Below the pieces are notes generated by a model. That model made no database searches. It was given only the letters and a program-made list of their open reading frames with translations, and was not told where the DNA came from. A stretch of 64,000 nucleotides of DNA from an uncultured Methylococcaceae bacterium (lineage in GTDB: Bacteria > Pseudomonadota > Gammaproteobacteria > Methylococcales > Methylomonadaceae), in the NCBI GenBank assembly GCA_903873165.1, contig CAIQNQ010000103.1, positions 8,387 through 72,386 on the forward strand. Direction: 5' to 3'. Shown here one piece after another: positions 30,145 through 63,457 of the stretch; positions within the stretch are counted from its first letter, which is position 1; the number at the start of each line of letters is the position of its first letter. The translations under genes were made by a program, and so were the position numbers.

Positions 30145-30151
30145 GATACAA

Positions 30152-30584: not shown

Positions 30585-30677
30585 AAAGGAGCCGTGTTGA
30601 TGACCATTCTACTTAATCGACACAACTAAGCAAGTTTTTAATAAAAATCGGAATTGCTCGCCTACAGGAAGCGCACT

Positions 30678-46577: not shown

Positions 46578-46603
46578 AAAAGTGTGTCATATGACACAGT
46601 TTT
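46578..46603. promoter_or_regulatory. palindromic regulator-binding site S1 (AAAAG TGTGTCAT ATGACACA GTTTT)
   Basis: The core at 46583-46598 is a perfect 16-bp palindrome. It is one of six related copies in the window. Confidence 0.7.
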
Positions 46604-46609
46604 TTTAAC

Positions 46610-46635
46610 AAAAGTGTGTCATATGACACACTTTT
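46610..46635. promoter_or_regulatory. palindromic regulator-binding site S2 (perfect 26-bp palindrome AAAAGTGTGTCAT ATGACACACTTTT)
   Basis: Read directly from the sequence. The centre-to-centre distance from S1 is 32 bp. Confidence 0.7.
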
Positions 46636-46759: not shown

Positions 46760-47509
46760 ATGCAAAAAAAGATTAGTTTATTAAAGCTAGGCTTAAATGT
46801 TATAGGGATACTTACAATAATATCTTCAGTTAACGCAACAGAGTTGGCTAAGCGTAAAGATGCGAATAATTTTTCTCAAGTAGCACTGCAGATAGCCCAA
46901 ACTCAGCACTTAAGATTGCATTATCCAAGTCATTTGAGCAATAAGTCGGTTAATAATAAATGCCCAGAAGATACCATTGATAAAGTTGTTACTTGCTTAC
47001 TAGGCGGTGCATTTATAGATATGGTTATTAAGAGTAAGTTTGATGGTAAACCGGAAGAGGTTTGGATAGTCGATAGTCAAAATACGCATAACAGCGTTGC
47101 AAAAAATCAACTAGTGAATGTTGATGAACATAATGTCGCAAATGATTCTGCTGACTTATTAGCATTAGCACAATCTGAAGACGCTTTAGAAAGATCACAA
47201 GCTATTGGTAATATGGCAGTCTCAGAAATTAGTGACCCCATTTTAGCTAAAAAGATTCTATCAGATGCTTTAGAAGATAAAGATCCAGACATTCGGGCTA
47301 AAGCGGTTAATAGTGTAACTAAAGTGGACAATGAAAATGCTAGGTCTGTATTACTTCGTATGCTAACAGATAAAGAAGTTAGTGTTAGGCTAGCTTCTGT
47401 TGTTGCTGCCTATAATGATGAAGAAGTATTACATATGGCAGAAGGAGATAGTGATGAGCAGGTTCGTATGTTGGCTGAAATTAGTTTAAATAAGTTAAAA
47501 AGCCAATAG
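46760..47509 (+). CDS. secreted HEAT-repeat protein (copy 1)
   Basis: Signal peptide, then a C-terminal half with HEAT/PBS-lyase-like repeats (ALEDKDPDIRAKAVNSV, LTDKEVSVRLASV, DSDEQVRMLAEISL). Confidence 0.7.
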   Translation: MQKKISLLKLGLNVIGILTIISSVNATELAKRKDANNFSQVALQIAQTQHLRLHYPSHLSNKSVNNKCPEDTIDKVVTCLLGGAFIDMVIKSKFDGKPEEVWIVDSQNTHNSVAKNQLVNVDEHNVANDSADLLALAQSEDALERSQAIGNMAVSEISDPILAKKILSDALEDKDPDIRAKAVNSVTKVDNENARSVLLRMLTDKEVSVRLASVVAAYNDEEVLHMAEGDSDEQVRMLAEISLNKLKSQ

Positions 47510-47682: not shown

Positions 47683-48384
47683 ATGCAAAAAATTAAATTA
47701 GTAAAGGCAATGTCTTTGGCATTATTGAGTTTAACTACAGTGGATATAGCTTCTGCTCATGATTTGTTGGGTGGATCATTGGCTGCCGCGCAAAACTCGG
47801 TAGATGTTTTTACTACTAGTTGTTTTAGTTGGAATGGTGCGGTGCCCAATGCAGCAACGGGAATTACTTATGGCCCATTACCCGCAGGTGAAGTTGTAAC
47901 ACCAGCGAGGGGGTTTAAAGCGGCTATTAGTTTGACTGCTGGATCAACAGTGACGGCTACAATTGGTTATACCTCAGTAGGCAATATCAATGGTAATGCT
48001 GTAGGTAATAATGTATTACCAGCATCACCAGCACCTAAAGCACTCGTGGTTACTGATACTACTTTAGGTTCTGCATGGAATAAAACTAGCACGATTCTTC
48101 CTGAGTTTAATGCGTTGGGCGTGTCACCTAAAGGATTTGGTCCTGCCGGCTTTTTAGATATTACAGGTGTAGCACCTACAAAAACAAACAACGGGAATGG
48201 TGAGTACGTTATTGTGATCTCTCATGCTTCTGCGGTGGCAACTAAATATGATTTTCTAGGTCATTGTCAAACTGGCACTAGCGGATCTCTTACTGGTATT
48301 CATACAGGTCAAGGTGCAAATTTTGTAAAAGCAGGAAATCAAGTTGCGCCAACTTTTGATTATGATCAACTTATTGATCAATAG
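47683..48384 (+). CDS. secreted protein of unknown family, predicted to mature with N-terminal His (copy 1)
   Basis: The ATG at 47683 has a GGAG SD. The signal peptide MQKIKLVKAMSLALLSLTTVDIASA is followed by HDLL. It shares the conserved islands TSCFSWN, ISHAS, GHC, GIHTG and a terminal LIDQ with the 57258-57971 paralog. Confidence 0.65.
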   Translation: MQKIKLVKAMSLALLSLTTVDIASAHDLLGGSLAAAQNSVDVFTTSCFSWNGAVPNAATGITYGPLPAGEVVTPARGFKAAISLTAGSTVTATIGYTSVGNINGNAVGNNVLPASPAPKALVVTDTTLGSAWNKTSTILPEFNALGVSPKGFGPAGFLDITGVAPTKTNNGNGEYVIVISHASAVATKYDFLGHCQTGTSGSLTGIHTGQGANFVKAGNQVAPTFDYDQLIDQ

Positions 48385-48527
48385 GTTAAGTAAAGAAGTA
48401 AAATAATATTTTAACTCGATTGAAAGATACAACAAAATATTTAAACGCCCTTTAAAGGGCGTTTAATGTTTAATCTACGGTAATGAATTTAGATGTGTCT
48501 AGATAGATTAAGGTTTTATAAATAATC

Positions 48528-49280
48528 ATGAAAGAATTAAATTGCTTGGTATTAATCTTAATAATTAATATCAGTTCTCTAGTGCATGCAGACAACTTTC
48601 AATTGAAAAGTAATGAACAAAAGTCTAGCTATGCATTAGGTGTGGATTATATGAATGGTCTATATCAAGACAATCTAGCCTTGGATAATAGGGCTTTTTT
48701 GCAAGGCATAAAAGATGTGCAAGCGGGCTTGGGTTCTCGTCTTAACCCCGAAGAACAAAGACGAGCATTAAATTTTTTTATTGTAAAACGCCTTAAACAA
48801 AGACAGTTGCAAAGCGACGCTACTTTGGCTCAAGGTAAAACTTATTTGCTTGAAAATAAAAAGCATTCGGGTGTTAAAGAACAACCGAGTGGTCTTCAGT
48901 ATAAGATATTAAAAATGCCTAATAGTCAACAACAAGTCACTAGCTCAGATGGCGTTGCTATACGTTATCGACTATTTGATATCAAAGGTAAACAGTTAAT
49001 GGCATCACCTGAAGGTAATAGCCAAAAATTAGTGATAAACGCAATTTTTCCTGGTTTACAAGAAGCGTTATTGTTAATGAAAGTAGGTGAAAAAATTGAA
49101 GCAGTGATACCTCCTGAACTGGCTTTTGGGGTTAATGGTAGTCCAGATGGCTTAATTAAGCCTAATCAAACTCTAGTCTATGAGTTGGAGTTGGTAAGTG
49201 TTATTTCTGCGGAACAGGCAAAAGTTGAAATGGAAAAACCCACATTAGTGGGTGGCAAGCCAAATACTTTTGATCAGTAA
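48528..49280 (+). CDS. FKBP-type peptidyl-prolyl cis-trans isomerase (FkpA/Mip-like), periplasmic (copy 1)
   Basis: Signal peptide, an N-terminal dimerisation-type region (SYALGVDYMNGL) and a C-terminal FKBP domain (LVYELELVSV). Confidence 0.85.
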   Translation: MKELNCLVLILIINISSLVHADNFQLKSNEQKSSYALGVDYMNGLYQDNLALDNRAFLQGIKDVQAGLGSRLNPEEQRRALNFFIVKRLKQRQLQSDATLAQGKTYLLENKKHSGVKEQPSGLQYKILKMPNSQQQVTSSDGVAIRYRLFDIKGKQLMASPEGNSQKLVINAIFPGLQEALLLMKVGEKIEAVIPPELAFGVNGSPDGLIKPNQTLVYELELVSVISAEQAKVEMEKPTLVGGKPNTFDQ

Positions 49281-49324
49281 TCTATAATGATAAAGTGTTA
49301 TTATTTTTTAAAAAGCAACAAGAT

Positions 49325-49543
49325 ATGAAAGTTAAAATACTCATCATTCTATTATTCATTGGTTTTTTTCTTACAGGTTGCGCTGAAGTAAAACCTTGGC
49401 AGCGGGGTAATTTAGCTAAGTCCATCATGGCTAATGACCCATCTCCTTTACAATCTTCTTTTAGACAGCATAATTATTCCAGCCGAGAAGCGGCAGGTGC
49501 TACTAGTTCTGGAGCAACTGGTGGTGGTTGTGGCTGCAATTAA
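49325..49543 (+). CDS. DUF4266 family lipoprotein (copy 1)
   Basis: MKVKILIILLFIGFFLTGC lipobox, VKPWQRGNLAK, HNYSSREAA and a terminal GGGCGCN, which is the characteristic DUF4266 pattern. Confidence 0.8.
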   Translation: MKVKILIILLFIGFFLTGCAEVKPWQRGNLAKSIMANDPSPLQSSFRQHNYSSREAAGATSSGATGGGCGCN

Positions 49544-52343
49544 GTCAAAATCTAAATATGTCAAAAGTGCTACTTTACAAGCTTTATGCCTATCAGCATT
49601 GACATTGCCAGGCCTGTCCATTGCTGATAATGCTGCAGGTACTGATGCCAGTATGCATGGTAAATCAAATACCAATTCAGCAAGTGAGACACCTAAACAA
49701 AGTCTTAAGCAATCAGATGCTTTTGATGAAATTGATTACCAATATACTATTTATCAAGAGGGTAAGCGTGATACTTATGATACAGCGCCTTACACTATTG
49801 ATAATAACGGCATCATGACTTCAACTGGGCCTTATAAATACCAAACAAATTTACAACCTATCACTGTGGATAGTGAGCATGCCTCCAGTCGTTTTCGGTT
49901 TGGTGATAGAACACGCTTTGGGTTTAATTATGTACAGGATGTTTGGTCAGGTGCTACGCCTTGGTTTACTACGGCGGCGGGCAATTTTATGATTAAAGCA
50001 AATCCTCAATCTTTAGTGGGAGCTACTTATTGGGCTAATGGCGCGGGTGGTGGGCAGTTATTTGATGCAAAGAATAAGCCATTAACCTTGGCCGCTTTTG
50101 ATACGAATACGAGTACTATTCTCGCAACCAGTCCTTCTCGTATTCAACATGTATTAGGTTATGCCTCACCTGAAATGCGTAATCAGGCGGATTTCAAGTT
50201 AGGATATGACTTTGATCATGCTGCATTGGATATTGGTGGTGGATTATCTGTTGAACGTGATTATCTATCGCAATTTGGAAATTTGGCAGGGCGCATGGAC
50301 TTTAATCAAAAACGTACAACCTTAAATTTTGGGTTGAGTTATACCAATAGTGCGACACACGCTACGTCCACCACAAATTCTTCTAGTGGAACAGTATTAG
50401 ATCCCAGTGTTAATGTCAGTCAACACCAAGCTATGTCGATGTTACCTGGTGATGTTCCTGTTTATGAGCAAATTATTAAAGGTACGCGAGAGGATGGAAC
50501 TATTTCTTTAGCACTTAGCCAAGTGTTAACTAAAAACTCAGTGCTTACTAGTGGTGTTGGTTATACACGTAGTAGTGGTTATATGAGTAATCCTTATAAA
50601 GCAGTCATGGTTTATAATATGGATCCTAATTGGCGATCGGATGGCGGCTCTGGAGCCGTGCTGCCTGATACGGCTTTTCCGGGAGTGCAAATGGCAACGA
50701 GTGGTGGCCCAGTTGCGGAACAGCGGCCGCATTTACGAAATCAGTTAAACTGGGATATCTCTTATCGGCACTATATTGAACCTTTAAATGCTGCCGGCAA
50801 AGTTGGGTACAACTTTTTTCATGATGATTGGGGTATTAACGCACACAGTTTCGATGCTGAATGGCGACAAGCCTTAGGTGATAGTTGGACACTTACGCCG
50901 CATACCCGATATTATTCGCAATCATCGGCTAGTTTTTATACCCCCTACCTTTTATATACTAATGGGGATGTGAGTCCACAAGATCCTGGTTATTTAACAC
51001 CTCTTGCAAGTCAGCATTTTTCTTCTGACCAACGCTTATCATCTTATGGTGCCATTAGTGGAGGGATAACTTTGGGTAAGCAATTAGCGCAAGGTTTAAA
51101 CCTTGAGTTAGGTTACGAATATTATGTCCATAAAGGCGCACTGGCAATAAGTAGTGGCACAGGAGATTACGCTGATTATCATTATTATGCAGCAAGTGCC
51201 ACTATGCGAGTTAATCTCGATCAACTGTCGTTAAGAGGCGGCGCTTATGATAATTACGGACTCTCGGATTGGTTAGGTAATCTGTTTGGTGGAAACGATG
51301 TTGAATCTATTAGCGCTAACTCAAGTCATCAACATAATCATGGTCTAGCTCCTGCGGGGGTTATGTTCTCTCACATGCTTTCTCATGCAGGTGAAACTAT
51401 GGTGGGTTATCGTTATATGCGCGATACGCAGAGTGGTAATTATTTACAGGGCGCTCAAGCGTTAAGTTCGACTCAGCTTACTAATTCTCAGGCTTGTATG
51501 CCATTGGGTCAATGTACTATGCTTTCTAATAGCATGGACATGAATATGCACATGGTTGATTTGATGTATGCTCCCACGGATTGGCTAAATTTGATGTTGA
51601 TGCCGCAGTTTATGTCAATGTCGATGGAAATGAATATGCCAGTTGCTATGTCCATGACTGCAATGGGTGGCGGAATGAATATGCCGGCTTTACGTGATTT
51701 TCAAGGCAGTGGTGGATTTGGTGATACTGGGGCGTATGCTTTATTCAAGCTATGGGATGGTGATGGACAACATTTACATCTAACTCAAGGTATCAGTGCG
51801 CCGACGGGTGCAACGAATATTCGTCAGAGTTCTCCGGGTGGTCCAGAATATTATTATTCTTATGGCATGCAACTAGGTAGTGGTACTTGGGATTATAAGC
51901 CTAGTTTGACCTATACGGGAATTTTGAATGATTGGTTCTGGGGTGGGCAGGTGAGTGGTACCCATAGATTGGAAAATTTAAATAATCAAGGTTATAGGCA
52001 GGGTGATATTTTCCAGACCACGGCATGGGGTGGCTATAAATTGACGCCTTGGCTTAGCTCTACCATACGTGCGGTTTATACTGCACAAAGCAAAATGGTT
52101 GGCACTCATACAAATGTGAATACAGTTGCTGGAGTACCTATGTGGATGCCTGAAGACAATCCAAGTAATTATGGTGGCTTCTTTGTTGATGTCGGCTTCG
52201 GTGCGACAGTGAGTATGCCTTATGGCAAACTGGCTGGTCATTCTTTAGGGTTTGAATGGTTGCAACCTGTTAGCACTAATTTCCAAGGCTATCAGTTAGA
52301 TAGAGCAGGGGCTTTGTCTGCGACATGGAATTATAAGTTTTAG
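49530..52343 (+). CDS. DUF3570 domain protein fused to a C-terminal His/Met-rich beta-barrel-like domain (copy 1)
   Basis: DUF3570-like motifs are present (VQDVWSGATP, GYMSNPYKAV, EQRPHLRNQ, FHDDWGINAHSF, RYYSQSSASFY, SSDQRLSSYG). A roughly 390-aa extension follows, with a Met-rich tract and a terminal aromatic residue (..WNYKF). The GTG start at 49530 (VAAIKSK..) is chosen by analogy with the paralog start MAVIKTP. This gives the same 14-nt overlap with the DUF4266 gene. Confidence 0.7.
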   Translation: MAAIKSKSKYVKSATLQALCLSALTLPGLSIADNAAGTDASMHGKSNTNSASETPKQSLKQSDAFDEIDYQYTIYQEGKRDTYDTAPYTIDNNGIMTSTGPYKYQTNLQPITVDSEHASSRFRFGDRTRFGFNYVQDVWSGATPWFTTAAGNFMIKANPQSLVGATYWANGAGGGQLFDAKNKPLTLAAFDTNTSTILATSPSRIQHVLGYASPEMRNQADFKLGYDFDHAALDIGGGLSVERDYLSQFGNLAGRMDFNQKRTTLNFGLSYTNSATHATSTTNSSSGTVLDPSVNVSQHQAMSMLPGDVPVYEQIIKGTREDGTISLALSQVLTKNSVLTSGVGYTRSSGYMSNPYKAVMVYNMDPNWRSDGGSGAVLPDTAFPGVQMATSGGPVAEQRPHLRNQLNWDISYRHYIEPLNAAGKVGYNFFHDDWGINAHSFDAEWRQALGDSWTLTPHTRYYSQSSASFYTPYLLYTNGDVSPQDPGYLTPLASQHFSSDQRLSSYGAISGGITLGKQLAQGLNLELGYEYYVHKGALAISSGTGDYADYHYYAASATMRVNLDQLSLRGGAYDNYGLSDWLGNLFGGNDVESISANSSHQHNHGLAPAGVMFSHMLSHAGETMVGYRYMRDTQSGNYLQGAQALSSTQLTNSQACMPLGQCTMLSNSMDMNMHMVDLMYAPTDWLNLMLMPQFMSMSMEMNMPVAMSMTAMGGGMNMPALRDFQGSGGFGDTGAYALFKLWDGDGQHLHLTQGISAPTGATNIRQSSPGGPEYYYSYGMQLGSGTWDYKPSLTYTGILNDWFWGGQVSGTHRLENLNNQGYRQGDIFQTTAWGGYKLTPWLSSTIRAVYTAQSKMVGTHTNVNTVAGVPMWMPEDNPSNYGGFFVDVGFGATVSMPYGKLAGHSLGFEWLQPVSTNFQGYQLDRAGALSATWNYKF

Positions 52344-52388: not shown

Positions 52389-53294
52389 ATGAAAGCCAAG
52401 AAGCTTAAGCAATTTAACTATCACTTTAATGCTATGGGCACTCAGTGTGAAATCCAGCTTTTTAGTGAGCACCCCGGCAGAGCCAATCGACTCGGTAAAC
52501 GCATTATTGCGGATGTCGAGCGCTTGGAGGCAAAATATTCGCGTTATCGGCCAGAAAGCCAGTTAAGCCAAATTAATAATGTGGCCTTATTGGGCGGTAG
52601 TATTGCGGTGGATGATGAGACAGCCGTTTTGCTTAATTATGCTGAAACTTGTTATCAACAAAGTGATGGCTTATTTGATATTACCTCTGGCGTTTTAAGG
52701 GGCGCATGGCGATTTCATGCTCAGCGCTTACCGACTCAAGCAGATATAGATCCCTTATTAGAAAAGGTGGGTTGGCATAAGCTAAATTGGCACATGCCTA
52801 GGCTAGAGTTTACTCAGCCCGGCATGGAATTGGATTTAGGAGGGGTGGTAAAAGAATATGCTGTCGATAGAGCTGCCACTTTATGTAGAGAAGTCGGTAT
52901 CAAAAGTGGATTGATAAATTTAGGGGGTGATATCAGGTTAGTAGGCCCCAGAGGTGACGGTGAGCCTTGGATAGTTGGGATTGAGCATCCTCGGAAACCG
53001 AGTTCTGTGTTGATTAATTTGTCCGTAACGCGTGGCGCATTAGCAAGCAGTGGGGATTATCAACGCTGTATTGTTATAGATGGCATTCGCTATGCGCATA
53101 TTCTTAACCCCAAAACGGGTTGGCCAGTTAAGCATTTAGCGGCTGTTAGTGTTATGAGTGATTTTTGCGTCGTAGCCGGTAGCGCCTCAACCATTGCCAT
53201 GCTTAAAGAGGAGCAAGGCCCTGAGTGGTTGAGGCAATTAGGTTTACCGCACCTGTGGGTCGATATTAATGGTAAACAGGGCGGTGATTTATAA
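52389..53294 (+). CDS. apbE: FAD:protein FMN transferase (ApbE family)
   Basis: FNAMGTQCEI, GLFDITSG, LDLGGVVKEYAVDRA, INLGGDI, SSGDYQRC...HILNPKTGWP and AGSASTIAM motifs. No N-terminal signal peptide is visible. Confidence 0.88.
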   Translation: MKAKKLKQFNYHFNAMGTQCEIQLFSEHPGRANRLGKRIIADVERLEAKYSRYRPESQLSQINNVALLGGSIAVDDETAVLLNYAETCYQQSDGLFDITSGVLRGAWRFHAQRLPTQADIDPLLEKVGWHKLNWHMPRLEFTQPGMELDLGGVVKEYAVDRAATLCREVGIKSGLINLGGDIRLVGPRGDGEPWIVGIEHPRKPSSVLINLSVTRGALASSGDYQRCIVIDGIRYAHILNPKTGWPVKHLAAVSVMSDFCVVAGSASTIAMLKEEQGPEWLRQLGLPHLWVDINGKQGGDL

Positions 53295-53334: not shown

Positions 53335-54093
53335 TTAGGGCTGTTTCCAGCTTGACGTGGGTTTTAGATCGCTAGTTTGTGAGGCGATTTTTTCCACAAT
53401 ACTCATCAGTTCAACCTCATAAATCAGGACTTCATTCGGCGCTAAATGGCCGGGGGCACCCGTTTCACCATAGGCTAGATTGCTTGGTACAAACAATTGC
53501 CATTTACTGCCTTCGGTCATTAACAACATAGCCTCCTTCCAGCCAGGCACCAAGCTGGCAATCTGCACCTCGGGTACTTTTGCAGAGGTTAGCGTATTGG
53601 TTAATTCTTTGCCATCCAGTTGCGTGATTTTAAAGCGCACCTGGGCTGATTCTTTTAGTGTCGGTTGACGCGATGATTTGCCGGGAATTAGCACCTTGTA
53701 CTGTAAGCCACTGGCGGTCGTAATAACGCCTGGTTTTTGCTTGTTCTCTGCTAAAAATGCCTCACCTTTAGCCAGATTTAAGGCACCCATTTTTTCATTG
53801 TACTTTACGTGTTGTACAAAAACCCAGTCCTGGCCTTTTAGCAATTCGTTCGGATTAAGGCGTAACGGATGCTTGTTTAGTACATCATTCATACCTAACA
53901 CAAACAAACTCTGATCCAGTGGAATCTCGCTTTTTTGCAAGTTTTGCAAATAATTAACCCCTTGCGCATAGCTGGATTTTTGCTGATCTGATTGCAGGAT
54001 TGGTTCGGTGATAACCGATTTGGTAGGTGGCGTCGCTGCGCAACCTGTTAAAAAACTGAAACACAGGGCTGTGAAATAAGTTTTAGCTTTCAT
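53335..54093 (-). CDS. FKBP-type peptidyl-prolyl isomerase, lipoprotein (copy 2)
   Basis: Lipobox FLTGC, SYAQGVNYLQNL and a C-terminal FKBP domain (LIYEVELMSI). Confidence 0.85.
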   Translation of the reverse strand: MKAKTYFTALCFSFLTGCAATPPTKSVITEPILQSDQQKSSYAQGVNYLQNLQKSEIPLDQSLFVLGMNDVLNKHPLRLNPNELLKGQDWVFVQHVKYNEKMGALNLAKGEAFLAENKQKPGVITTASGLQYKVLIPGKSSRQPTLKESAQVRFKITQLDGKELTNTLTSAKVPEVQIASLVPGWKEAMLLMTEGSKWQLFVPSNLAYGETGAPGHLAPNEVLIYEVELMSIVEKIASQTSDLKPTSSWKQP

Positions 54094-54139
54094 GGATCCT
54101 CTTAAAAATAAAAATTTAAATAAAAATTAACAACCGTTA

Positions 54140-56884
54140 TCAAAACCCAACGCCCCACGTTGCAGTTAATGCGCCACTGCGTTCTAATTGATAGCCGTTA
54201 TAGTCGGTGTGTACCGGTTGCAGCCATTCAAATTTGAGGGTATTGCCGGCAAAAGTACCTGTGGGTACTGTCACATTAATGCCCAAACCGACATCCACAA
54301 ATTGACCGCCGTAGTTACTGGTAAATTGGCTAGGCATTCGATAGTTGCCGAATTGGTTATAGGGGATTGTACTGCCATCAGTCATGACTACGGGCTTGAG
54401 TACCCCATGAATACTGTCCTGCCAGGTATAGATGCCACGTACGTTAGCAGACAACCAGTTATTCCATTGATAACCACCCCATATGCTGCTCTGGAAGATA
54501 TCACCTAAGGCATAACCGGATTCATTGTGTTTATCTAAGCGTTTGGTACCGGTAGCCTGAGCGCCCCAGATAATGGCTTCCATTGCGCCACTGTAGGTCA
54601 AGCTGGGTTTAAGATCCCAGGTGCCACTGCCCAGTTGCATGCTGTAATCGAGTGGAATGATTGCAGCGTTAGAAGTGTTCTTTTTCTGCATCAGTGAGAC
54701 ATTGCCGGTGGGCGCGGTGCCGCCTAGGCTTAGGGTGAGCTGATGACCGTGTTGTTCAAATAGTTTGATCAGCGCATACAAACCGGTATCGCCAATGCCG
54801 CCGGATTGTTGATTCATTACGGGCATATCGAGGCCCATGCCAGTAGTGCTGCGTTTCATCTCTGACTGGTTCATTTTCATATCCATATCCGTCCATTGCG
54901 GCATTAGCATTAGTGTTACCCGGTCAGTGGCGGCCACCATCAGCTCCAGCATGTGCATATTCATAGTCATAGTGCTGGGTAACATCATGCAGGTTTGATC
55001 AGCGCAACCCTGTGCAATGGCCGTATCGTTACTGGCTGTCGACGTGCCAGACAGCATAGAGCCAGATTGTTCGTTACGCATGTACCGGTACCCCGCCATC
55101 ATATCGCCGGCATTATCCAGCGCATGATCAAACATGATACCGGCTGGCGTAATGGCATGGCTGGCATGGTGATGAGCTGTGCTGCTGCTATCGTTGCTAC
55201 CTCCATTAAAACGCAAAGCACCCAGATTGATTTTAAGTGCGGCATTGGCCGTCCAATAATCAAAATTATTGAACGCCTGTTCACTACCGCTACCACCACC
55301 CAACTTTAAGGCACTCTGATGCGTGTAATATTCAAACCCAGCTTGCAGACTGATGCCTTTGGCGAATTGTTTTGCTACGATGACTCCACCACTCAGAGCA
55401 CCAAAACCTGCCAAACGCTGGTCGCTGGAATAATAATCCGGTAGGGCTTTGGAATAGATGACATTACCTGAAGCATCATACCCTGACATGGTTGTCGTAA
55501 AATACGGGGCATAAAAATCCGCTGCCGATTGCGAGTAATAACGTACTTTGGGGGTGATTGTCCAGCCGGCACCTACCGGTTGCGCCCAATCGGCCTCAAA
55601 CGTATGAGAATTAATGCCCCAATCATCATGTGCCCCCGTGTAACGAGTATGCAGCGCAGCGTTGAGCGGCTCAATATAATAATGGTAGCCCAGATTGCCG
55701 TTGACCTGATTGCGCTCATGCGGGCGAGCCTCCCATTGACCTGCTCCGCTGTACATTAATGGTTGGCTTGGATCCTGACCGGGGTTGGCGTGAAACACAT
55801 ACACCGCCTTGTAAGGATTACTTAAGTAGCCAGTGCTATGGGTAAAACTCGTTCCCACATCCATTACGGCGTTTTGGGTCAGAATCTGGGTTAGGCCCAA
55901 ATTACCAGCGACATCTTGACGAGTACCGGTCAGGGTAGTTGTTTGTGCACCAATCATCCCTCTGTTAGGAAGGCTTGTTGTTACCTGATGATAAGTACCT
56001 TCGGTCTGAGGACTGTAGAAGTTACGCGTTGTAGTATTGCCATTGACGGTGCTGCCGTTAAAGGAATAGGGGCCACCAGCCATGTAAGTCACAGCAAATG
56101 GATCCAGGGTGGCGTGGGTATAACTGTTGGTATAGCTTACGCCGGCATTGAGGCTGGTGCGTTTTTGGTTAAAATCCAGGCGCAAACCCAGATTACCGAA
56201 GCGCGAGTCATAATCATTTTCTACCGAATAGCCACCGCCGCCGTTAACGCTGGCGTTATCCCAATCATAATCCAGTTTAAAGTCGCTTTGTTTGCGGGTT
56301 TCTGGCGAGGCGCCGACCAATACATTAGTCACCTGGTTGACTATAGCACCGGGTGTAAACGTACTACTCCCCGTATTAGGATCATAATGATAGTTTTGGC
56401 TATGAATATTATTCTGTTTGTCTATATAGAAAGGATTAGAATTTGTGTTACGTAACAGAGGTGAAGCACCAGTAATGGCATTAGTGACAGGGTTCGATAC
56501 CGGACTCGCTGCATTCGACACGACCGGCGCAGAGGCAATCGGTGTGGCTCCGGCCCAGGTATCCTGAGTGTAATTAAACGCAAACTTGACCCGGTCAGTC
56601 AGGTGAACACGAGAACTACCATGTAAGCCATCTACTTCGATCGGGTTTAAATAATTGGGTGTTTTACTGGACGTGAATGTGCCAGTAGGATTTACATTGG
56701 TATAAATATTGCGGTAACCTTCCTGGTAATGGCTGTACTGAAAGTCCACTTCATCTTCATCGGCTGCGTAAGCTGGGGCTTGCATTAGGCCGGGCAGGAT
56801 TAAGGCCGCTGCGGTTAATGCTTGTAAATTAGACTTGCCACGAGAGGGTGCTTTGGGTTTTTCGGGGGTTTTAATTACAGCCAC
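54140..56884 (-). CDS. DUF3570 domain protein fused to a C-terminal His/Met-rich beta-barrel-like domain (copy 2)
   Basis: 914 aa and collinear with copy 1, sharing FNYTQDTWAGATP, GYLSNPYKAV, EARPHERNQ, AHDDWGINSHTF, RYYSQSAADFY and SSDQRLAGFG. The tracts HHHASHAITPAGIMF and MMLPSTMTMNMHMLELM...MLMPQWTDMDMKM follow. It ends ..WGVGF. Confidence 0.75.
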   Translation of the reverse strand: MAVIKTPEKPKAPSRGKSNLQALTAAALILPGLMQAPAYAADEDEVDFQYSHYQEGYRNIYTNVNPTGTFTSSKTPNYLNPIEVDGLHGSSRVHLTDRVKFAFNYTQDTWAGATPIASAPVVSNAASPVSNPVTNAITGASPLLRNTNSNPFYIDKQNNIHSQNYHYDPNTGSSTFTPGAIVNQVTNVLVGASPETRKQSDFKLDYDWDNASVNGGGGYSVENDYDSRFGNLGLRLDFNQKRTSLNAGVSYTNSYTHATLDPFAVTYMAGGPYSFNGSTVNGNTTTRNFYSPQTEGTYHQVTTSLPNRGMIGAQTTTLTGTRQDVAGNLGLTQILTQNAVMDVGTSFTHSTGYLSNPYKAVYVFHANPGQDPSQPLMYSGAGQWEARPHERNQVNGNLGYHYYIEPLNAALHTRYTGAHDDWGINSHTFEADWAQPVGAGWTITPKVRYYSQSAADFYAPYFTTTMSGYDASGNVIYSKALPDYYSSDQRLAGFGALSGGVIVAKQFAKGISLQAGFEYYTHQSALKLGGGSGSEQAFNNFDYWTANAALKINLGALRFNGGSNDSSSTAHHHASHAITPAGIMFDHALDNAGDMMAGYRYMRNEQSGSMLSGTSTASNDTAIAQGCADQTCMMLPSTMTMNMHMLELMVAATDRVTLMLMPQWTDMDMKMNQSEMKRSTTGMGLDMPVMNQQSGGIGDTGLYALIKLFEQHGHQLTLSLGGTAPTGNVSLMQKKNTSNAAIIPLDYSMQLGSGTWDLKPSLTYSGAMEAIIWGAQATGTKRLDKHNESGYALGDIFQSSIWGGYQWNNWLSANVRGIYTWQDSIHGVLKPVVMTDGSTIPYNQFGNYRMPSQFTSNYGGQFVDVGLGINVTVPTGTFAGNTLKFEWLQPVHTDYNGYQLERSGALTATWGVGF

Positions 56885-57092
56885 AACCGCCTCCTTGTGA
56901 GTTATTTGCCGCTGAAGCTGCCTCGCGGCTACCGTAGTTATGCTGACTCAACCCGCTTTGCAAGGGATAAGGATCCAGTGCCATGTGTGGTTTGGCCAGG
57001 TTGCCGCGCTCCCAGGGCTGAACGCTGGTGCAGCCAGTGAGTACTAGCAGTACGTAAACCAGTAATAGGTGATGTAAAACTATTTTGTCCAT
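56871..57092 (-). CDS. DUF4266 family lipoprotein (copy 2)
   Basis: MDKIVLHHLLLVYVLLVLTGC lipobox, VQPWERGNLAK, HNYGSREAA and a terminal GGGCGCN. It overlaps the DUF3570 start by 14 nt. Confidence 0.8.
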   Translation of the reverse strand: MDKIVLHHLLLVYVLLVLTGCTSVQPWERGNLAKPHMALDPYPLQSGLSQHNYGSREAASAANNSQGGGCGCN

Positions 57093-57257
57093 GTATTCCT
57101 TTGAGTAAAGCGTTGCAATCTGCGATAACAATTAAGCCAAAAACTTTTTTAGAAAAAGCCGGTAACTCGTAGGAGCTACCGACTTTTTGGTAATGCAATA
57201 ATACCTACCGTTGTTTAACTTAAGCAGGCCTGTGTTATCGTTGTGATGACTATGGAT

Positions 57258-57971
57258 TTATTGGTCAATGAATTGATTCCAATCAGCTGCTGTAGTACCG
57301 GAACCATTGGGTACATCAATAAAGCTGTTGGGGTTAGCGCCAGTATTCACCCCAGTACCTGTGTGAATACCCACAGAAGAATCGGGCGCTGGGAGTGCGC
57401 CTACCGCCACGTTTTCGCAGTGAAAAGTGGCTAGATAATTAGTCGCCACACCCGGAGTATGAGAAACGGCGACGGTGTAAGTGCCGTTAGCATCTGCGCC
57501 TAAATTATCTTTTACCTGTGCCCAGGCGCCAGCATTGGTTCCGTCGCCCCATAAATTAGGAATAACAGTGCCATCGACCAAAATCCCACCGCTGTTAACC
57601 GGAACCCCTGTTGTTGAGGATACGCCAGCTAAAGGGGTATTTCCGAATGGAGAGCCGACGGATACTTTTACTTTAGAGGTGGCGCCACTAAGCGCAGTCG
57701 GAGTGCAAGTTGCATCGAGTGTTGAACAGCGATGATACGCCCTGGCCACAAAGCGTTTAGCAGCGGCTGTCGATTCGCCGCCGGCTGCCGCTGCACCTGC
57801 TGCGTTCCACGTAAAGCAACTGGTGTGATACACGTCAATCTCAGAGGCTGTGCCAGCATCCGCCGCCGAGAGTGTTCCAGGTGCTGTATGCGCCATACTT
57901 ACATTAGACAGGCTTATTGCACATAGCATAGCAGTTGATAATAATGTTAGTTTTAGAGTATTATTTTTCAT
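57258..57971 (-). CDS. secreted protein of unknown family, predicted to mature with N-terminal His (copy 2)
   Basis: The signal peptide ...LSNVSMA is followed by HTAPG. It shares the conserved islands TSCFTWN, VSHTP, FHC, GIHTG and a terminal FIDQ with copy 1. Confidence 0.65.
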   Translation of the reverse strand: MKNNTLKLTLLSTAMLCAISLSNVSMAHTAPGTLSAADAGTASEIDVYHTSCFTWNAAGAAAAGGESTAAAKRFVARAYHRCSTLDATCTPTALSGATSKVKVSVGSPFGNTPLAGVSSTTGVPVNSGGILVDGTVIPNLWGDGTNAGAWAQVKDNLGADANGTYTVAVSHTPGVATNYLATFHCENVAVGALPAPDSSVGIHTGTGVNTGANPNSFIDVPNGSGTTAADWNQFIDQ

Positions 57972-57992
57972 AGGAATCTCAATTTAATGGAT

Positions 57993-58031
57993 TAAAAAAA
58001 TGCCGACGCGCTATTTCGAGTTGCGCTCGGC
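57993..58031 (-). terminator. intrinsic-terminator-like hairpin between HEAT2 and the His1-protein gene (minus strand)
   Basis: The minus strand reads GCCGAGCGC..loop..GCGCGTCGGC followed by CATTTTTTT. The T-tail ends about 22 nt before the ATG at 57971. Confidence 0.5.
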
Positions 58032-58118
58032 CGGTACACTTATCACCATTGATAGGTGTACTTGCTTTTGCTGTCGGCGTACGGACTAGGTACGTCGACT
58101 ACAAAATCTTTGCTAGGT

Positions 58119-59009
58119 TTATTGTTGTCCATTACGTTCGCGGTAACGAAGCAACATACCTAATTTATCAGCCGCGTAATTGCTGACACTTTTATCACTA
58201 TCATTCTGGGCCTGTTCCAGCAGATCCTGATTATTGGCTGCACTTTCAATTGCCGCCATGCGCACGCTACTGTCGGTATCCTGTAAACCACGACTAATAA
58301 TTTCCTTAGCATTGTCTTTGTCTAATGCCGCCATTGATGACAAGGCCTGACTGCGGATGGTGGGGTTTTTATCCCCCATCGCCTCGGTAAGTGCTGCACG
58401 CACATTTGGATCATTAATATTGGCGCCTGCCGTTAAATAACTGAGGGCATTTTTACGTTCTTCTGCGGTTTTGGCTTCTTTAAGACCGGTTAATAGGGCA
58501 TCGGAGTATTCTTTATTGGGTGGTTCCGGTTTTCGTTGGGAATTATCGATACCAGATTCAGTTTTTATGGATACGGGTGTGGATTCAATCGTTAAGGTCT
58601 GACAACTACCAACACTGGAACCTAGTAGCCAAAATTCTGCGGGTTTGCCGGGTTCCGGTTTGTTTGCTACCAAGCCAATTTGCTTGGCCAGCAAGCAATC
58701 CATTAATTGCCAAACGTTTGTGCCAGCGCAAGTCGCCGTTACCGGCGCTTCTGGTAATGCGGAGTAATGAAAAATTGCACCAGTTTTACTGGCAATTTCA
58801 TTAAGGATTTCCCCCAGGGGCATTTGCCTTACTTCTAAACTGATCGGGCTGTCTGCTTGTGTCGATAACACAAGTTGAATGCTGGGTTGTATCGTCGGCG
58901 TTACCACGGGTTTATCTTTTACCGTTTCAGCAAGCAAGGGATTGCTAGACAAAAAGCTCCCAACCATTGAAACGACCAAGCTTATATATTGCGTATATTT
59001 AATGATCAA
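58119..59009 (-). CDS. secreted HEAT-repeat protein (copy 2)
   Basis: TTG start with a signal-like N-terminus. The C-terminal half carries HEAT-like repeats (MGDKNPTIRSQALSSM, LQDTDSSVRMAAIES, DSDKSVSNYAADKL). Confidence 0.65.
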   Translation of the reverse strand: MIIKYTQYISLVVSMVGSFLSSNPLLAETVKDKPVVTPTIQPSIQLVLSTQADSPISLEVRQMPLGEILNEIASKTGAIFHYSALPEAPVTATCAGTNVWQLMDCLLAKQIGLVANKPEPGKPAEFWLLGSSVGSCQTLTIESTPVSIKTESGIDNSQRKPEPPNKEYSDALLTGLKEAKTAEERKNALSYLTAGANINDPNVRAALTEAMGDKNPTIRSQALSSMAALDKDNAKEIISRGLQDTDSSVRMAAIESAANNQDLLEQAQNDSDKSVSNYAADKLGMLLRYRERNGQQ

Positions 59010-59103: not shown

Positions 59104-59934
59104 TTAAAAAGCCCGCACAGCCCGGACAGGAGCATAGGCATTTTTAGGAGCGTATCCAGCGTCACCGTAGTAGAAGTCGTAAGTCCAGGCCCCCAAGTCG
59201 TCGCTTTCTGAAGAACTCCAGAAGGAAGTACTGTCTGATTTAGTAATACCTCCTACCCCATGATCCGCTAAATTCTTATACATTAGAGTAAGTTCGTTAA
59301 TTGATGGTAAATACCAATCACTTTTATTGGCTGTTAAATAAAGATCAGCTTGCTTGGCTGCACCCGTTGAGCAAGCTCCAAGCATGGCTGTGGTGTTCGC
59401 CTTACCAGCACCTAAAGCTCTAGCAGACCAAGCCGCTACCTGTGGAATTGAGGTGTTGGTAATATTACACCACTGGGTAACTGCTATATCAGTCGGAGCG
59501 GCTTCCAGATAATTAAAGCCTGGATATTCATCGTTATAATCAACAAAGAATATCCAGCCCCCACCGGGACCTACCTCGCCAACTTTACAAGCCACTTTGC
59601 CACTGGCACCACAAGTCATAGAATAGGCAAATGAACTTCCAGAGCCTGAAGAACCTGCAGGCCCCATAGCCCCTGTAGCCCCCATAGCCCCTGTGTCACC
59701 TTTTGCGCCAGTGGCCCCCGTCATTCCTATCGGTCCCTGAACTCCTGGCTCACCTTTAGCTCCTTTTGGGCCTCTTGGTCCAATAGGTCCTCTTGGACCT
59801 CTAGTTCCAGCGGACGATGCCGTTGCTAGCCCTTGAACGCCCACAGCGTCTGTTGCATCAGCAACACTCCATAATGATGACAATATCAGTGCTGACATAA
59901 TCATTGGTATTTTTAATAACGATAATATTTTCAT
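59104..59934 (-). CDS. secreted collagen-like triple-helix repeat protein with DUF1566 (Lcl-type) C-terminal domain
   Basis: Signal peptide, then about 19 uninterrupted G-X-Y triplets ([40 protein letters not shown]...). The C-terminal domain contains [14 protein letters not shown], which is typical of DUF1566. Confidence 0.75.
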
Positions 59935-60218: not shown

Positions 60219-60234
60219 AGTGTTATATGACGCA
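60219..60234. promoter_or_regulatory. palindromic site A (AGTGTTAT ATGACGCA)
   Basis: Three mismatches to TGTGTCAT ATGACACA. It is flanked by AAAGC and GTTTT. Confidence 0.55.
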
Positions 60235-60248
60235 GTTTTATAGATAAG

Positions 60249-60264
60249 TGTGTCATATAACACA
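60249..60264. promoter_or_regulatory. palindromic site B (TGTGTCAT ATAACACA)
   Basis: One mismatch to the consensus. The centre is 30 bp from site A. Confidence 0.65.
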
Positions 60265-60267
60265 AGT

Positions 60268-60933
60268 TTAGCCATCCAGAATATCTATAACTGTTTCGCA
60301 GCTAATTTCGTTTTCAGTGCTATTGCCTATAAAATAGGCCAATCTTTCAATAGCCTGCCAATAAATAGCTGTGTTGATAAATTCAAAAGCTTCCCTAAGT
60401 AGTCGCGTTATGTTTTCTGAATGACGCGACTTATCCGCAATAAAATCATCGAGATACTCCTGAATATTTTCTAGATCAGAACTACCGCCATATTGGTGTA
60501 AGGTATTTATCTCGATATTTTGTAAATCAAAACGCTGCCCACTTTTAAGGGCTAGATATTTGGCTTCTGCTAATGGCCCCGCTAGTAGATTGACAATATC
60601 TGCCTCAAATGCGCTTTTAATACTATCTTTTTCGCTATTACTATAAAACATACTGCTTTCGATGATATTAAACGGTAGGTTTTGTATTAAGCGGCCTTCG
60701 ATCACTTGGGCAATATAATGTTTATCCCTAGGATCAATTTGATTTGAATTCGATAGTATGGATGATGAATTGCTTCTCAGATTTATCTGAAAATAAACGG
60801 GGGGTAAGTTTTTTTGTTGATTATTAAGATGTATGGCGGCCGCATGACCCGCTTCATGAAAAGCAGTTTTTAATAATAAGTCTTTATCAAAAAGGCTGTG
60901 GGTATGGTAGTTAATTGGGTGATTTCGTTTCAT
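60268..60933 (-). CDS. stand-alone M41 (FtsH-peptidase-like) HEAGH zinc metalloprotease domain protein
   Basis: 221 aa. AFHEAGHAAAIHL resembles the FtsH HEAGHA motif, and YGGSSDLENIQEY resembles the FtsH G.S.D...A segment. There is no AAA domain, TM segment or signal peptide. Confidence 0.55.
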   Translation of the reverse strand: MKRNHPINYHTHSLFDKDLLLKTAFHEAGHAAAIHLNNQQKNLPPVYFQINLRSNSSSILSNSNQIDPRDKHYIAQVIEGRLIQNLPFNIIESSMFYSNSEKDSIKSAFEADIVNLLAGPLAEAKYLALKSGQRFDLQNIEINTLHQYGGSSDLENIQEYLDDFIADKSRHSENITRLLREAFEFINTAIYWQAIERLAYFIGNSTENEISCETVIDILDG

Positions 60934-60951
60934 TAAGTCGCCTCAAACTAT

Positions 60952-60978
60952 AAAAAAAAGCGGTCATAATGACCGCTT
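60952..60978 (-). terminator. intrinsic-terminator-like hairpin in the 5' leader of the M41-like gene (minus strand)
   Basis: 9-bp perfect stem AAGCGGTCA / TGACCGCTT with a 3-nt loop. A T8 run follows on the minus strand and ends about 18 nt before the ATG at 60933. Confidence 0.5.
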
Positions 60979-61079
60979 GAGGGGGAGGATCTTTAAACTC
61001 TGATACCTTTAGGGGCGGAGCGCCTATCAAGAGTTGCATACAGAATAGACCTGAAAAAGATATTTGGAAATGTGGCAAA

Positions 61080-61093
61080 TTGTCGCGCGACAA
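61080..61093. promoter_or_regulatory. 14-bp perfect palindrome TTGTCGCGCGACAA, flanked by GATATTTGG direct repeats
   Basis: Read directly from the sequence. A related half-site, AATGTCGCGA, lies at 61094-61103. GATATTTGG occurs at about 61059 and 61102. Confidence 0.4.
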
Positions 61094-61107
61094 AATGTCG
61101 CGATATT

Positions 61108-61123
61108 TGGCATAGTTACTGCT
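61108..61123 (+). promoter_or_regulatory. sigma54-like element (TGGCAT-AGTTA-CTGCT)
   Basis: GG at 61109-10 and GC at 61121-22 have the canonical spacing. It lies upstream, not downstream, of palindromes C and D, about 240 nt from the ATG at 61364. Confidence 0.4.
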
Positions 61124-61202
61124 TTATATTCCTTTCTTAATTTTTAAAGTCTCGGTTAATTGAGAGTTTTCAAGGCATACAAGCCATTAATTTAAATAGA
61201 GC

Positions 61203-61218
61203 TGTGTCATAAGACACA
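61203..61218. promoter_or_regulatory. palindromic site C (TGTGTCAT AAGACACA)
   Basis: One mismatch to the consensus. Confidence 0.65.
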
Positions 61219-61232
61219 ACTTTTAGCAAAAG

Positions 61233-61248
61233 TGGGTGATATGACGCA
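61233..61248. promoter_or_regulatory. palindromic site D (TGGGTGAT ATGACGCA)
   Basis: Three mismatches to the consensus, an AAAAG 5' flank, and a centre 30 bp from site C. Confidence 0.5.
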
Positions 61249-61302
61249 TAGTTCGTTAAGGCTGGGTAGCAGTCAATAGCACCCTATTTAAATAAGAATG
61301 AT

Positions 61303-61331
61303 TTGCATTTGCATATTTCTAAGGTTAGAAT
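61303..61331 (+). promoter_or_regulatory. candidate sigma70 promoter (TTGCAT-17 nt-TAGAAT)
   Basis: Hexamers with a 17-nt spacer, about 30 nt upstream of the ATG at 61364. Confidence 0.35.
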
Positions 61332-61363
61332 CTAATTAACTAACAAATAGTGGAGATAGGTGT

Positions 61364-62884: not shown

Positions 62885-62914
62885 TAGGTTACGGCTCTTT
62901 AGTGGAACTACACG

Positions 62915-63457
62915 ATGAAAATAGTTAAGTTAATTTTATTAAGCGGCATATTGCTGATGGTTACACCCAGTTTTGCGACTATTTATTACAGCAAAAATGA
63001 AGCGATGGAATTGGCCTTCGGTGCAGGTATCCCTATTGAGCCGTTATCTTTATTTCCCGATGAAGCACAGATCGCTAAAATAGAACAAGTCGCTAAGCAA
63101 AAATTAGAGTCCGGCTTATTCACTTTTTATGTCGGTAAAAATCAAGATAAAATATTGGGCTATGCAGCCATAGAAACCAGTACAGTTAGGACTAAACCAG
63201 AAACCTTGTTGATTGTATTAACCCCAGAGGGTGAGTTACGTAATATTTATACTTTAGCTTTTCATGAGCCGAATGAATATGAGCCGCCGCAAGCTTGGTA
63301 TGAAAGGCTCTATAATAAGCCGCTTGCTAACATGGATTTTAATAAAGGTGTGGATGGCATCAGTGGCGCGACCTTAAGTACGCGTACTGCGTTAAGTAGT
63401 ATTCGTAAAGTAATGATGATTTATCAAGTTATGATAAAAAATAAGGACTCTGAATAA
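62915..63457 (+). CDS. FMN-binding domain protein (predicted ApbE substrate), exported
   Basis: Signal/anchor MKIVKLILLSGILLMVTPSFA. The C-terminal VDGISGATLSTRTALSSIRKV matches the FMN_bind flavinylation motif D-x-x-S-G-A-T. Confidence 0.75.
   Translation: MKIVKLILLSGILLMVTPSFATIYYSKNEAMELAFGAGIPIEPLSLFPDEAQIAKIEQVAKQKLESGLFTFYVGKNQDKILGYAAIETSTVRTKPETLLIVLTPEGELRNIYTLAFHEPNEYEPPQAWYERLYNKPLANMDFNKGVDGISGATLSTRTALSSIRKVMMIYQVMIKNKDSE

Follow-up and report, generated by a model that had tools for sequence, protein, structure and literature searches.

The 64,000-nucleotide stretch of DNA analysed here, from an uncultured Methylococcaceae bacterium and referred to as the window, encodes two small proteins that are predicted to be secreted and to begin with histidine once their signal peptides are removed. 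We call them N-His proteins, paralog A (N-His_A) and paralog B (N-His_B). Each belongs to a gene module (Table 1). Module A runs in the order HEAT_A, N-His_A, FKBP_A, DUF4266_A, DUF3570_A and then ApbE, and module B lies mirrored on the opposite strand as FKBP_B, DUF3570_B, DUF4266_B, N-His_B and HEAT_B. An earlier note on this DNA had described both N-His genes without giving a strand for the second, which is on the minus strand. The ATG of paralog A is preceded by GGAG 8 nucleotides upstream. The two proteins are paralogous, with 29% identity (BLASTP, E = 9e-13). According to the -3/-1 rule, the signal peptide is predicted to end in IASA, before HD, in paralog A and in VSMA, before HT, in paralog B. 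This places His at position +1 in both copies, as the earlier note had proposed, and the motifs that it listed as shared, TSCF(S/T)WN, (I/V)SH, HC, GIHTG and (L/F)IDQ, were all found in A and B.

The earlier note could assign the two proteins to no family, and database searches bear this out. Neither A nor B matched Pfam or NCBIfam; for A, B and ten short relatives, only sub-threshold noise was returned (Ntox25, Cbm74, VirB11 and Peptidase_S41). Profile searches of the Protein Data Bank (PDB) sequences with two family alignments gave nothing meaningful, even at E <= 10, and a tblastn search of plasmids with paralog A gave no match. The literature searched contained no prior description of the N-His family or its module. 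Word-seeded searches of 5.8 billion clusters recovered only about 20 relatives. When 1.84 billion representatives were searched exhaustively with a profile, 128 proteins were recovered at E <= 1e-3, of which 20 had E <= 1e-30. Many of the 128 are shorter than the window proteins, at 145-200 residues. Judged by sequence, A and B belong to an undescribed superfamily of small, predicted Sec-exported proteins. Among named species, two methanotrophs, Methylolobus aquaticus and Methylotetracoccus oryzae, contain members of it, and the nearest genomes are metagenome-assembled genomes (MAGs) labelled Methylococcaceae. The nearest relatives of paralog B are in two B-type loci, L005 and L006, with 45% identity.

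Residue counts were taken from a MAFFT alignment of 143 members and are given in paralog A numbering. His26, the predicted first residue of the mature protein, is present in 136 of the 143 members (96%), and the residue before it at -1 is Ala in 134. Cys47 and Cys195 are invariant (142/142 for each). Cys195 is the second residue of a His-Cys pair, of which His194 is found in 135 members. Asp41 (138/143) and Tyr189 (140/143) are similarly conserved. Position 207 is His in 120 members and Glu in 14, and it is followed by Thr208 in 119 and Gly209 in 123. The C-terminal Gln is kept in 95/143. The earlier note had counted four conserved His and two conserved Cys. Both Cys and three of the His (H26, H194 and H207) hold throughout the family, but H181 of the (I/V)SH motif does not: 55 members have His at this position and 57 have Lys, so that it is not a conserved ligand. 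A minimal subfamily, with a mature length of about 120 residues, has retained His1, the Asp, the Cys, the Tyr and the His-Cys pair invariantly, together with a nearly invariant His-Thr-x-Thr.

The leaders are equally uniform. Among 125 leaders, the -1 residue is Ala in 119 and the -3 residue is A, V, S, T or G in all 125, with a hydrophobic h-region and a median length of 27 residues. All 125 leaders examined conform to the -3/-1 rule, and the pattern goes far beyond chance. Taken together with His at +1, these statistics make the predicted cleavage right before His a family-wide feature.

The three conserved histidines, denoted H1, H2 and H3 from the N terminus, behave as a unit. All three have been lost together, with both Cys kept, in four members that represent at least four lineages: P0006 (A-type), P0016 (B-type), the N-terminal copy (residues 1-150) of the tandem protein P0143 (short type), and an extra paralog at L015:10131-10583 that adjoins an intact copy. 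These triple losses fall in different subfamilies. Pairwise co-loss gives Fisher p values of 7.5e-4 for H1-H2, 1.2e-3 for H1-H3 and 2.7e-6 for H2-H3, all uncorrected for phylogeny. Because they are lost jointly in at least four lineages, the three histidines look like one site. The change of the third His to Glu in 14 members is an exchange typical of metal ligands.

The structure of mature paralog A was predicted with AlphaFold2 as an all-beta model of 208 residues (mean predicted local distance difference test score (pLDDT) 82.8, predicted template modelling score (pTM) 0.82). The 118-residue core from Methylolobus aquaticus was predicted with a pLDDT of 91.3 and a pTM of 0.84, and it contains nine strands. 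Both models are confident and show a jelly-roll beta-sandwich. A Foldseek search against the PDB with both models gave nothing at E <= 1e-3. The 208-residue model resembled only viral jelly rolls, with template modelling (TM) scores of about 0.3. For the core, PPC/collagen-binding, CBM6 and CBM61 folds were found with TM scores up to 0.6 and E >= 5e-3; we treat these matches as a fold class and not as homology. The best neighbor of the core is the PPC/clostridial collagenase collagen-binding domain (1nqj and 5sv5), with TM scores of 0.59-0.60 and a root mean square deviation of about 3 Å over about 100 columns. The E values are 1e-2 or worse, the identity is about 16%, and Pfam gave no PPC match for the N-His proteins. 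PPC domains lack an N-terminal His, and their ligands are Ca2+ and collagen. With the 208-residue model, CorA, of the MopE/CorA surface copper proteins (4bz4), appeared at rank 11 with a TM score of 0.20 and a probability of 0.15, which is noise.

In the predicted model, His1 opens strand 1 and the first Cys closes strand 2 of the same hairpin. Strand 8 closes with the His-Cys pair, and the third His is part of the loop that leads on to strand 9. From this strand order, His1, the Cys pair and the other His would be situated at one end of the sandwich. A Cys-Cys disulfide would hold His1 and His194 together at that end, with His207 beside them. The conserved C-terminal Gln would lie at the opposite end.

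This arrangement suggests a metal site. Once signal peptidase has cut, His1 would contribute its free amino group and its imidazole to a single mononuclear metal site, which two further residues would complete. The second site residue would be the His of the invariant His-Cys pair; the Cys of that pair probably forms a disulfide with the invariant Cys near the N-terminal hairpin. The third would be the His, or in some members Glu, of the H-T-G-x-G loop. Such a site would resemble a histidine brace of the type of PmoB CuB or CopC, and would most likely be a copper site. A histidine brace requires an N-terminal His that is unmasked by removal of a signal peptide, and many brace proteins are bacterial copper-trafficking proteins found in methanotrophs (PMC10952591). 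The N-His sequences have His as the predicted mature residue 1 and a second conserved His, His194. Like the brace proteins (LPMOs, the lytic polysaccharide monooxygenases of families AA9-AA17; CopC; YcnI; PmoB CuB; PmoF1; X325/Bim1), they are predicted to be secreted beta-sandwich proteins in which His becomes residue 1 only after leader cleavage and which contain at least one further conserved His. The third His/Glu recalls both CuB of PmoB (His33/His137/His139) and CopC (His/Asp/His). In contrast to the brace proteins, the N-His proteins have a PPC/collagen-binding-type jelly roll and a probable disulfide beside a presumed ligand His, and they are accompanied by flavinylation genes instead of copCD, ycnJ or pmo.

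The known brace families were considered as candidates and rejected. LPMOs (AA9-AA17; Pfam LPMO_10 and Glyco_hydro_61) gave no match in Pfam, in the PDB sequences or in Foldseek. CopC (PF04234), YcnI (DUF1775) and PCuAC gave no Pfam or NCBIfam match at E <= 0.1 and are absent from the Foldseek lists, and PmoB is absent from the Foldseek matches of both models. Of the histidine-brace proposal in the earlier note, the conserved N-terminal His is supported and co-varies with two other His; no homology or shared fold with LPMO, CopC, YcnI or PmoB was found.

The same data bear on a different explanation, namely that the site holds another metal (Zn, Ni or Co), or that the histidines are structural or sense pH, and that the protein is mainly an adaptor or plug that docks on the DUF3570 barrel described below. 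Tandem family genes are present in some modules; one copy is without the histidines in L015 and P0143 (e.g. Ala in place of His after the -1 Ala, A-C in place of H-C, and no H-T-G), and both copies are intact in the tandem at L022:3078-3554. Retention of His-less paralogs inside modules shows that the scaffold works without the site, the Gln conserved opposite the His cluster (95/143) hints at docking, and the nearest folds (PPC/collagen-binding domain, CBM6, CBM61) are binding modules. An adaptor without ligand chemistry would nevertheless hardly explain His at +1 in 96% of members, the joint loss or the His to Glu exchange. The conserved His is also the predicted first mature residue, and a structural His is rarely the first residue of a mature protein. 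We regard this explanation as quite unlikely. The persistence of His-less paralogs means that the scaffold serves some purpose for which the site is not required, and these copies suggest a second, metal-independent role.

The N-His gene is closely tied to its module. The same set of genes was found in all 12 homologue look-ups, in two further MAG loci (L009 and L012) and in both window copies, and it is kept across N-His members whose identity is as low as about 25-30%. The conserved module consists of a HEAT protein, the N-His protein, an FKBP or thioredoxin-like protein, DUF4266 and a DUF3570 protein of 860-1010 residues. In nearly all loci the N-His gene is preceded by a HEAT gene; L001 and L003/L004 have in this position a protein of 364-388 residues that carries no annotation. 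ApbE follows wherever the contig reaches, with none within the region read of L001, L003 and L016. A thioredoxin-like protein is encoded in L005, L013-L015, L017, L018 and L022. Both window modules lack it and have an FKBP in the slot; the position of FKBP_A is the thioredoxin-like slot of the methanotroph loci. Every component of module A is closest to A-type loci and every component of module B to B-type loci, which indicates that the parts of a module evolve as cognate sets. The genes that flank the window modules are housekeeping genes and show no synteny with the homologous loci.

The earlier note had linked the N-His proteins to an adjacent Met-rich barrel, and this link proves very strong, since it recurs in the 12 look-ups, the two MAG loci and both window copies. 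The identity of the barrel had been missed: it is DUF3570, a known substrate of ApbE flavinylation, and the system is therefore recast as redox-driven. DUF3570 is flavinylated by ApbE at two [S/T]GA[S/T] motifs, as shown for the Chlorobium luteolum protein only (PMC8238504). The N-terminal half of DUF3570_A contains the flavinylation-type motifs WSGAT (172) and VGAT (195), and DUF3570_B contains WAGAT, i.e. AGAT (111), TGAS (138) and VGAS (190). Of the 12 long DUF3570 proteins examined, 11 have two motifs spaced 20-26 residues apart, and in the remaining one, from L001, a single motif was found; the first residue is sometimes A or V instead of S or T. From these motifs and the presence of ApbE, flavinylation of the window DUF3570 proteins is predicted. 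No flavinylation motif was seen within the N-His proteins themselves on inspection by eye.

Beyond DUF3570, the DUF3570_A protein continues with a His-rich linker, a C-x5-C pair, a Met/His motif and a second barrel-like domain that ends in Phe. It contains 18 Met within the 60 residues from residue 689. DUF3570_B has C-x4-C, 16 Met within the 60 residues from residue 631 and likewise a terminal Phe. The C-x4-7-C pair was not found in L001 and L003, and the motif M-N-M-H-M-L-D-L-M-Y-A-P-T-D-W-L-x-L-M-L-M-P-Q-F-M-x-M-x-M is kept in every one of the 12 long DUF3570 proteins examined. In CusF, CopB/PcoB and Ctr1, Cu(I) is bound by alternating Met motifs. By functional analogy with such conduits (CopB/PcoB, CusF/CusB, Ctr1), alternating Met (MxM, MxHxM) would line the presumed path here too. 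No homology of the barrel to CopB/PcoB was detected: there was no NCBIfam match, and neither pcoB nor copB was among the tblastn matches from 72,556 plasmids. The plasmid matches were barrels annotated as 'transporter' or resembling Phenol_MetA_deg, and the C-terminal half of the long DUF3570 weakly matches Phenol_MetA_deg (PF13557) at E = 9e-4 and 19.8 bits, below the gathering threshold of 22. Free-standing plasmid homologues of this half share 26-33% identity over 80-85% of the domain. In the long DUF3570 proteins, the Phenol_MetA_deg-type barrel is joined to DUF3570 in one chain and keeps the Met/His motif, which is missing in some free-standing homologues. The Ruegeria plasmid copies adjoin DsbD and Ccm genes. 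A Methylocystis copy without the Met motif is encoded in the vicinity of a CusA/CzcA pump. The longest open reading frame of DUF3570_A overlaps DUF4266_A by 110 nucleotides (49434-49543); the true start is probably downstream, right before a signal-peptide-like sequence that ends in ALCLSALTLPGLSIA and is followed by the residues DNA.

A DUF3570 cluster has been described before. DUF3570 usually clusters with DUF4266, which has a C-terminal CXC, and with a thioredoxin-like protein and sometimes DsbD, and the published survey hints at iron assimilation (PMC8238504). The window shares with the cluster of Meheust et al. 2021 (PMC8238504) the DUF3570 motifs, the DUF4266 CXC and ApbE, and the related loci also share its thioredoxin-like partner, the place of which is taken by FKBP in the window. 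The DUF3570 proteins differ in length, with 860-1010 residues here and about 420 there, the additions being the His-rich linker, the Cys pair and the Met-lined barrel. The N-His and HEAT proteins are additional components that are not mentioned there, and ApbE has no signal peptide here. Compared with the published DUF3570 flavinylation cluster, of which it is a variant, the module has three added features: N-His, HEAT and a Met-lined barrel extension. JDVT-CTERM proteins, which have been reported beside DUF4266, DUF3570 and TlpA, carry a C-terminal Cys, a transmembrane segment and an Arg-rich sorting signal. Paralogs A and B were rejected as members, because both end in IDQ with no C-terminal transmembrane segment or sorting signal.

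Together, the conserved site and its genomic partner lead to the reading that we favor, for which we judge the chances to be about even. In this reading, His1, His194 and His207/Glu bind copper in a brace-like manner, and the ion is exchanged with the flavinylated barrel partner, whose role would be to reduce Cu(II) and to let Cu(I) through. The N-His protein would be the soluble metal-handling partner of its cognate outer-membrane protein, in which a flavinylated DUF3570 domain (the ApbE substrate) is joined to a second barrel with the His-rich linker, the Cys pair and alternating-Met strands (MNMHM...LMLMPQFMxMxM). Cu(II) held by the N-His protein would first be reduced by the FMN (flavin mononucleotide) groups on DUF3570. 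The electrons might come from a thioredoxin-like/DsbD route, from the CXC tail of DUF4266 or from a neighboring FMN_bind system. Cu(I) would then cross the outer membrane by way of the Met/His-lined barrel, for uptake or for export. We infer the disulfide, the clustering of the histidines, the identity of the metal and the electron path from the sequences and models.

The identity of the metal is where this reading meets a serious rival, since copper is itself inferred and iron could take its place. The module would then serve reductive iron assimilation, in which FMN-DUF3570 reduces Fe(III) and Fe(II) passes through the barrel, and the N-His protein would hold iron in a 3-His or 2-His-1-Glu site or act as a copper-dependent helper like P19/FetP. 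Glu at the third ligand would give a 2-His-1-carboxylate set, which is a typical Fe(II) ligand set. The adjacent set of a porin, an FMN_bind protein and a membrane protein under the same candidate operator fits this explanation as well, and flavinylation genes have been found co-located with iron transporters, including 25 DUF3570 clusters with the ferrous iron transporter VIT1 (PMC8238504). On a Methylosinus plasmid, a barrel homologue is encoded immediately upstream of feoB/feoC. This protein (L020, Methylosinus sp. C49 plasmid pMSC49c, 6792-9008) is an outer-membrane barrel of 738 residues with the motif NMKMQMHMF and a long His/Gly-rich linker; a PepSY-TM protein, a TonB receptor and FecR are also near, and it may be the outer-membrane partner of Feo. 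The Met-lined barrel speaks for copper instead. Met thioethers are poor ligands for Fe, and MxM and MxHxM are typical of Cu(I). The N-terminal His chelate is a further point for copper, as we know of no iron protein with such a chelate. Neither a Fur-type box nor an iron transporter was found in 14 N-His-associated neighborhoods. On balance, we consider the iron explanation unlikely, and copper remains the metal that we prefer.

By analogy, the N-His protein could also be a redox-active mono-copper enzyme or electron acceptor that is reduced by the flavinylated DUF3570 and acts on an envelope or extracellular substrate, much as cellobiose dehydrogenase reduces LPMO. The histidine-brace-like site and the obligate coupling to a flavoprotein would suit such an enzyme, and redox helpers are encoded nearby (thioredoxin-like and DsbC-like proteins and a dihaem cytochrome c, each near some of the homologous loci). 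Brace proteins include peroxygenases and oxygenases that need external reductants (PMC10952591). Yet the minimal domain of about 120 residues has no evident substrate-binding extension, there is no similarity to the LPMO fold, the Met/His-lined barrel would be left unexplained, and the His-less paralogs persist. We find this explanation improbable.

Several observations weigh against the copper-exchange reading itself. No sequence or fold link to known histidine-brace proteins was found in Pfam, NCBIfam, the PDB sequences or Foldseek. The closeness of the His residues and the disulfide are predictions from the strand order of the models. His-less paralogs have been retained. No copA, cueO, cusCBA, copCD, CueR or CopRS gene was present in the sampled neighborhoods. 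The Methylosinus homologue sits in an iron-uptake neighborhood, and the VIT1 clusters mentioned above point the same way. The ApbE proteins of the modules (window, L005, L007, L013-L015 and L018) start at the AMG(T/S) core, with no signal peptide or lipobox, which complicates flavinylation of a presumed outer-membrane substrate. Finally, the known link to methanotrophs is through the named members, not through the organism of the window.

The conserved site and the constant barrel neighbor point to a new system for handling a metal, probably copper, that occurs mainly among relatives of methane oxidisers. A bolder reading, which is possible though we hold it as doubtful, is that the module is a reductive copper-transport machine in the outer membrane of Methylococcales-like gammaproteobacteria, composed of a brace protein with a new fold, FMN-DUF3570 and a Met ladder. 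In yeast Fre1-Ctr1, a flavin-dependent cupric reductase is paired with a Met-lined Cu(I) channel. The predicted difference is that the reductase and the channel here would be part of one outer-membrane polypeptide, so that the module, if the reading is correct, would be a single-polypeptide bacterial counterpart of the eukaryotic Fre1-Ctr1 pair. The module bears on the question of how copper crosses the outer membrane of gammaproteobacterial methanotrophs, and it would provide the entry route of copper for particulate methane monooxygenase (pMMO) in those methanotrophs that do not produce methanobactin. A function would thereby be found for the DUF3570/DUF4266/ApbE cluster as well, for which substrate modification is shown experimentally. 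If the N-His proteins do bind copper, a new fold would join the short list of histidine-brace proteins. The presence of the family in cultured methanotrophs makes the idea directly testable, and the candidate operator and the His-less paralogs are extra experimental handles.

Table 1. Positions of the N-His modules and neighboring features in the window
Feature	Position	Strand	Description
Type I restriction-modification genes	25389-33875		hsdM 26033-27541, hsdR 30654-33875 (NCBIfam)
Palindrome TGTGTCATATGACACA, two perfect copies	46583-46630		32 bp apart; about 130-175 nt upstream of HEAT_A
HEAT_A	46760-47509	+	predicted secreted; first gene of module A; C-terminal HEAT repeats; Pfam HEAT_2, E 2e-9
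N-His_A (paralog A)	47683-48384	+	233 aa
Predicted signal peptide of A	47683-47757	+
His26 codon of A	47758-47760	+	predicted mature start
Asp41 codon of A	47803-47805	+
Cys47 codon of A	47821-47823	+
Tyr189 codon of A	48247-48249	+
His194 codon of A	48262-48264	+
Cys195 codon of A	48265-48267	+
His207 codon of A	48301-48303	+
Gln233 codon of A	48379-48381	+	terminal residue
Perfect hairpin	48441-48466		11-bp stem; between N-His_A and FKBP_A
FKBP_A	48528-49280	+	predicted secreted Mip-like FKBP-type prolyl isomerase; Pfam FKBP_N, FKBP_C
DUF4266_A	49295-49543	+	small lipoprotein ending GGGCGCN (C-terminal CXC); Pfam DUF4266, E 5.7e-22
Long DUF3570_A	49434-52343	+	969 aa; Pfam DUF3570, E 4e-97, residues 49-570
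ApbE (FAD:protein FMN transferase)	52389-53294	+	single copy between the mirrored modules; Pfam ApbE, E 7e-76
FKBP_B	53335-54093	-	lipoprotein-type FKBP isomerase
Long DUF3570_B	54140-56884	-	914 aa; Pfam DUF3570, E 5e-103
DUF4266_B	56871-57131	-	small lipoprotein ending GGGCGCN
N-His_B (paralog B)	57258-57971	-	237 aa; also D46, Y179, terminal Q237
His203 codon of B	57363-57365	-
Cys185 codon of B	57417-57419	-
His184 codon of B	57420-57422	-
Cys52 codon of B	57816-57818	-
His28 codon of B	57888-57890	-	predicted mature start
Hairpin	58033-58062		13-bp stem; between HEAT_B and N-His_B
HEAT_B	58119-59009	-	module B equivalent of HEAT_A; Pfam HEAT_2, E 5e-11
Collagen-repeat protein	59104-59934	-	Pfam Collagen and Lcl_C
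TGTGTCATATGACACA near-copy pair	60219-60264		3 and 1 mismatches; upstream of minus-strand Lcl/HEAT_B/N-His_B
HEAGH protein	60268-60933	-	221 aa; no Pfam match
TGTGTCATATGACACA near-copy pair	61203-61248		in the divergent intergenic region 60933-61364
Porin-like, FMN_bind-like and membrane proteins	61364-63960

The palindrome TGTGTCATATGACACA, 16 nucleotides of the form TGTGT-N6-ACACA, occurs in tandem pairs 30-32 bp apart; the window contains 6 matches, compared with an expectation of 0.2. The motif is also located upstream of the HEAT gene in distant organisms (L007-L010, L013, L015, L017 and L018), at 3350/3370 in L007, 8805/8825/8898 in L009, 4505/4525 in L010, 7579 in L013, 7598 in L015, 7449 in L017 and 7574 in L018. 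As the same motif precedes the HEAT-led module elsewhere, it is probably the operator of a conserved regulator. The two hairpins within the modules are possible internal terminators or attenuators that would set the ratios of the components.

The two modules differ in composition. The GC content of module B is 0.45-0.51, with 0.41-0.52 at third codon positions (GC3), compared with a GC of 0.35-0.43 and a GC3 of 0.24-0.36 for module A and the flanks; the GC3 of ApbE is intermediate at 0.41. From this difference, horizontal transfer is the probable origin of module B (53335-59009), not a recent duplication in place, which fits its nearest relatives in L005 and L006. A common N-terminal domain of some 70 residues in the HEAT proteins has an invariant Cys pair and Trp, with the consensus L..IA.KTG..LHYS.LPE..VT..C.G......ECLLG...EVW. 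The domain appears STN-like by eye, and Pfam gave no STN match.

Three proteins are encoded behind the candidate operator in the divergent region. The first is a porin-like barrel of 506 residues that ends in GFGFIF. The second is a secreted protein of 180 residues with a textbook flavinylation motif, DGISGATLS, and a just sub-threshold match to Pfam FMN_bind (E = 8.6e-4). The third is a polytopic membrane protein of 167 residues with conserved-looking His residues. This set is a second putative ApbE-substrate system and may supply electrons to the DUF3570 modules of the window, from which DsbD or a thioredoxin-like partner is absent. The gene of the collagen-repeat protein lies between a candidate operator pair and module B, with which it may be co-transcribed. 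The protein of 221 residues contains HEAGH, a zinc-protease-like HExxH motif, and has candidate operator pairs on both sides. Elsewhere in the window, the type I restriction-modification genes are unrelated to the N-His finding.

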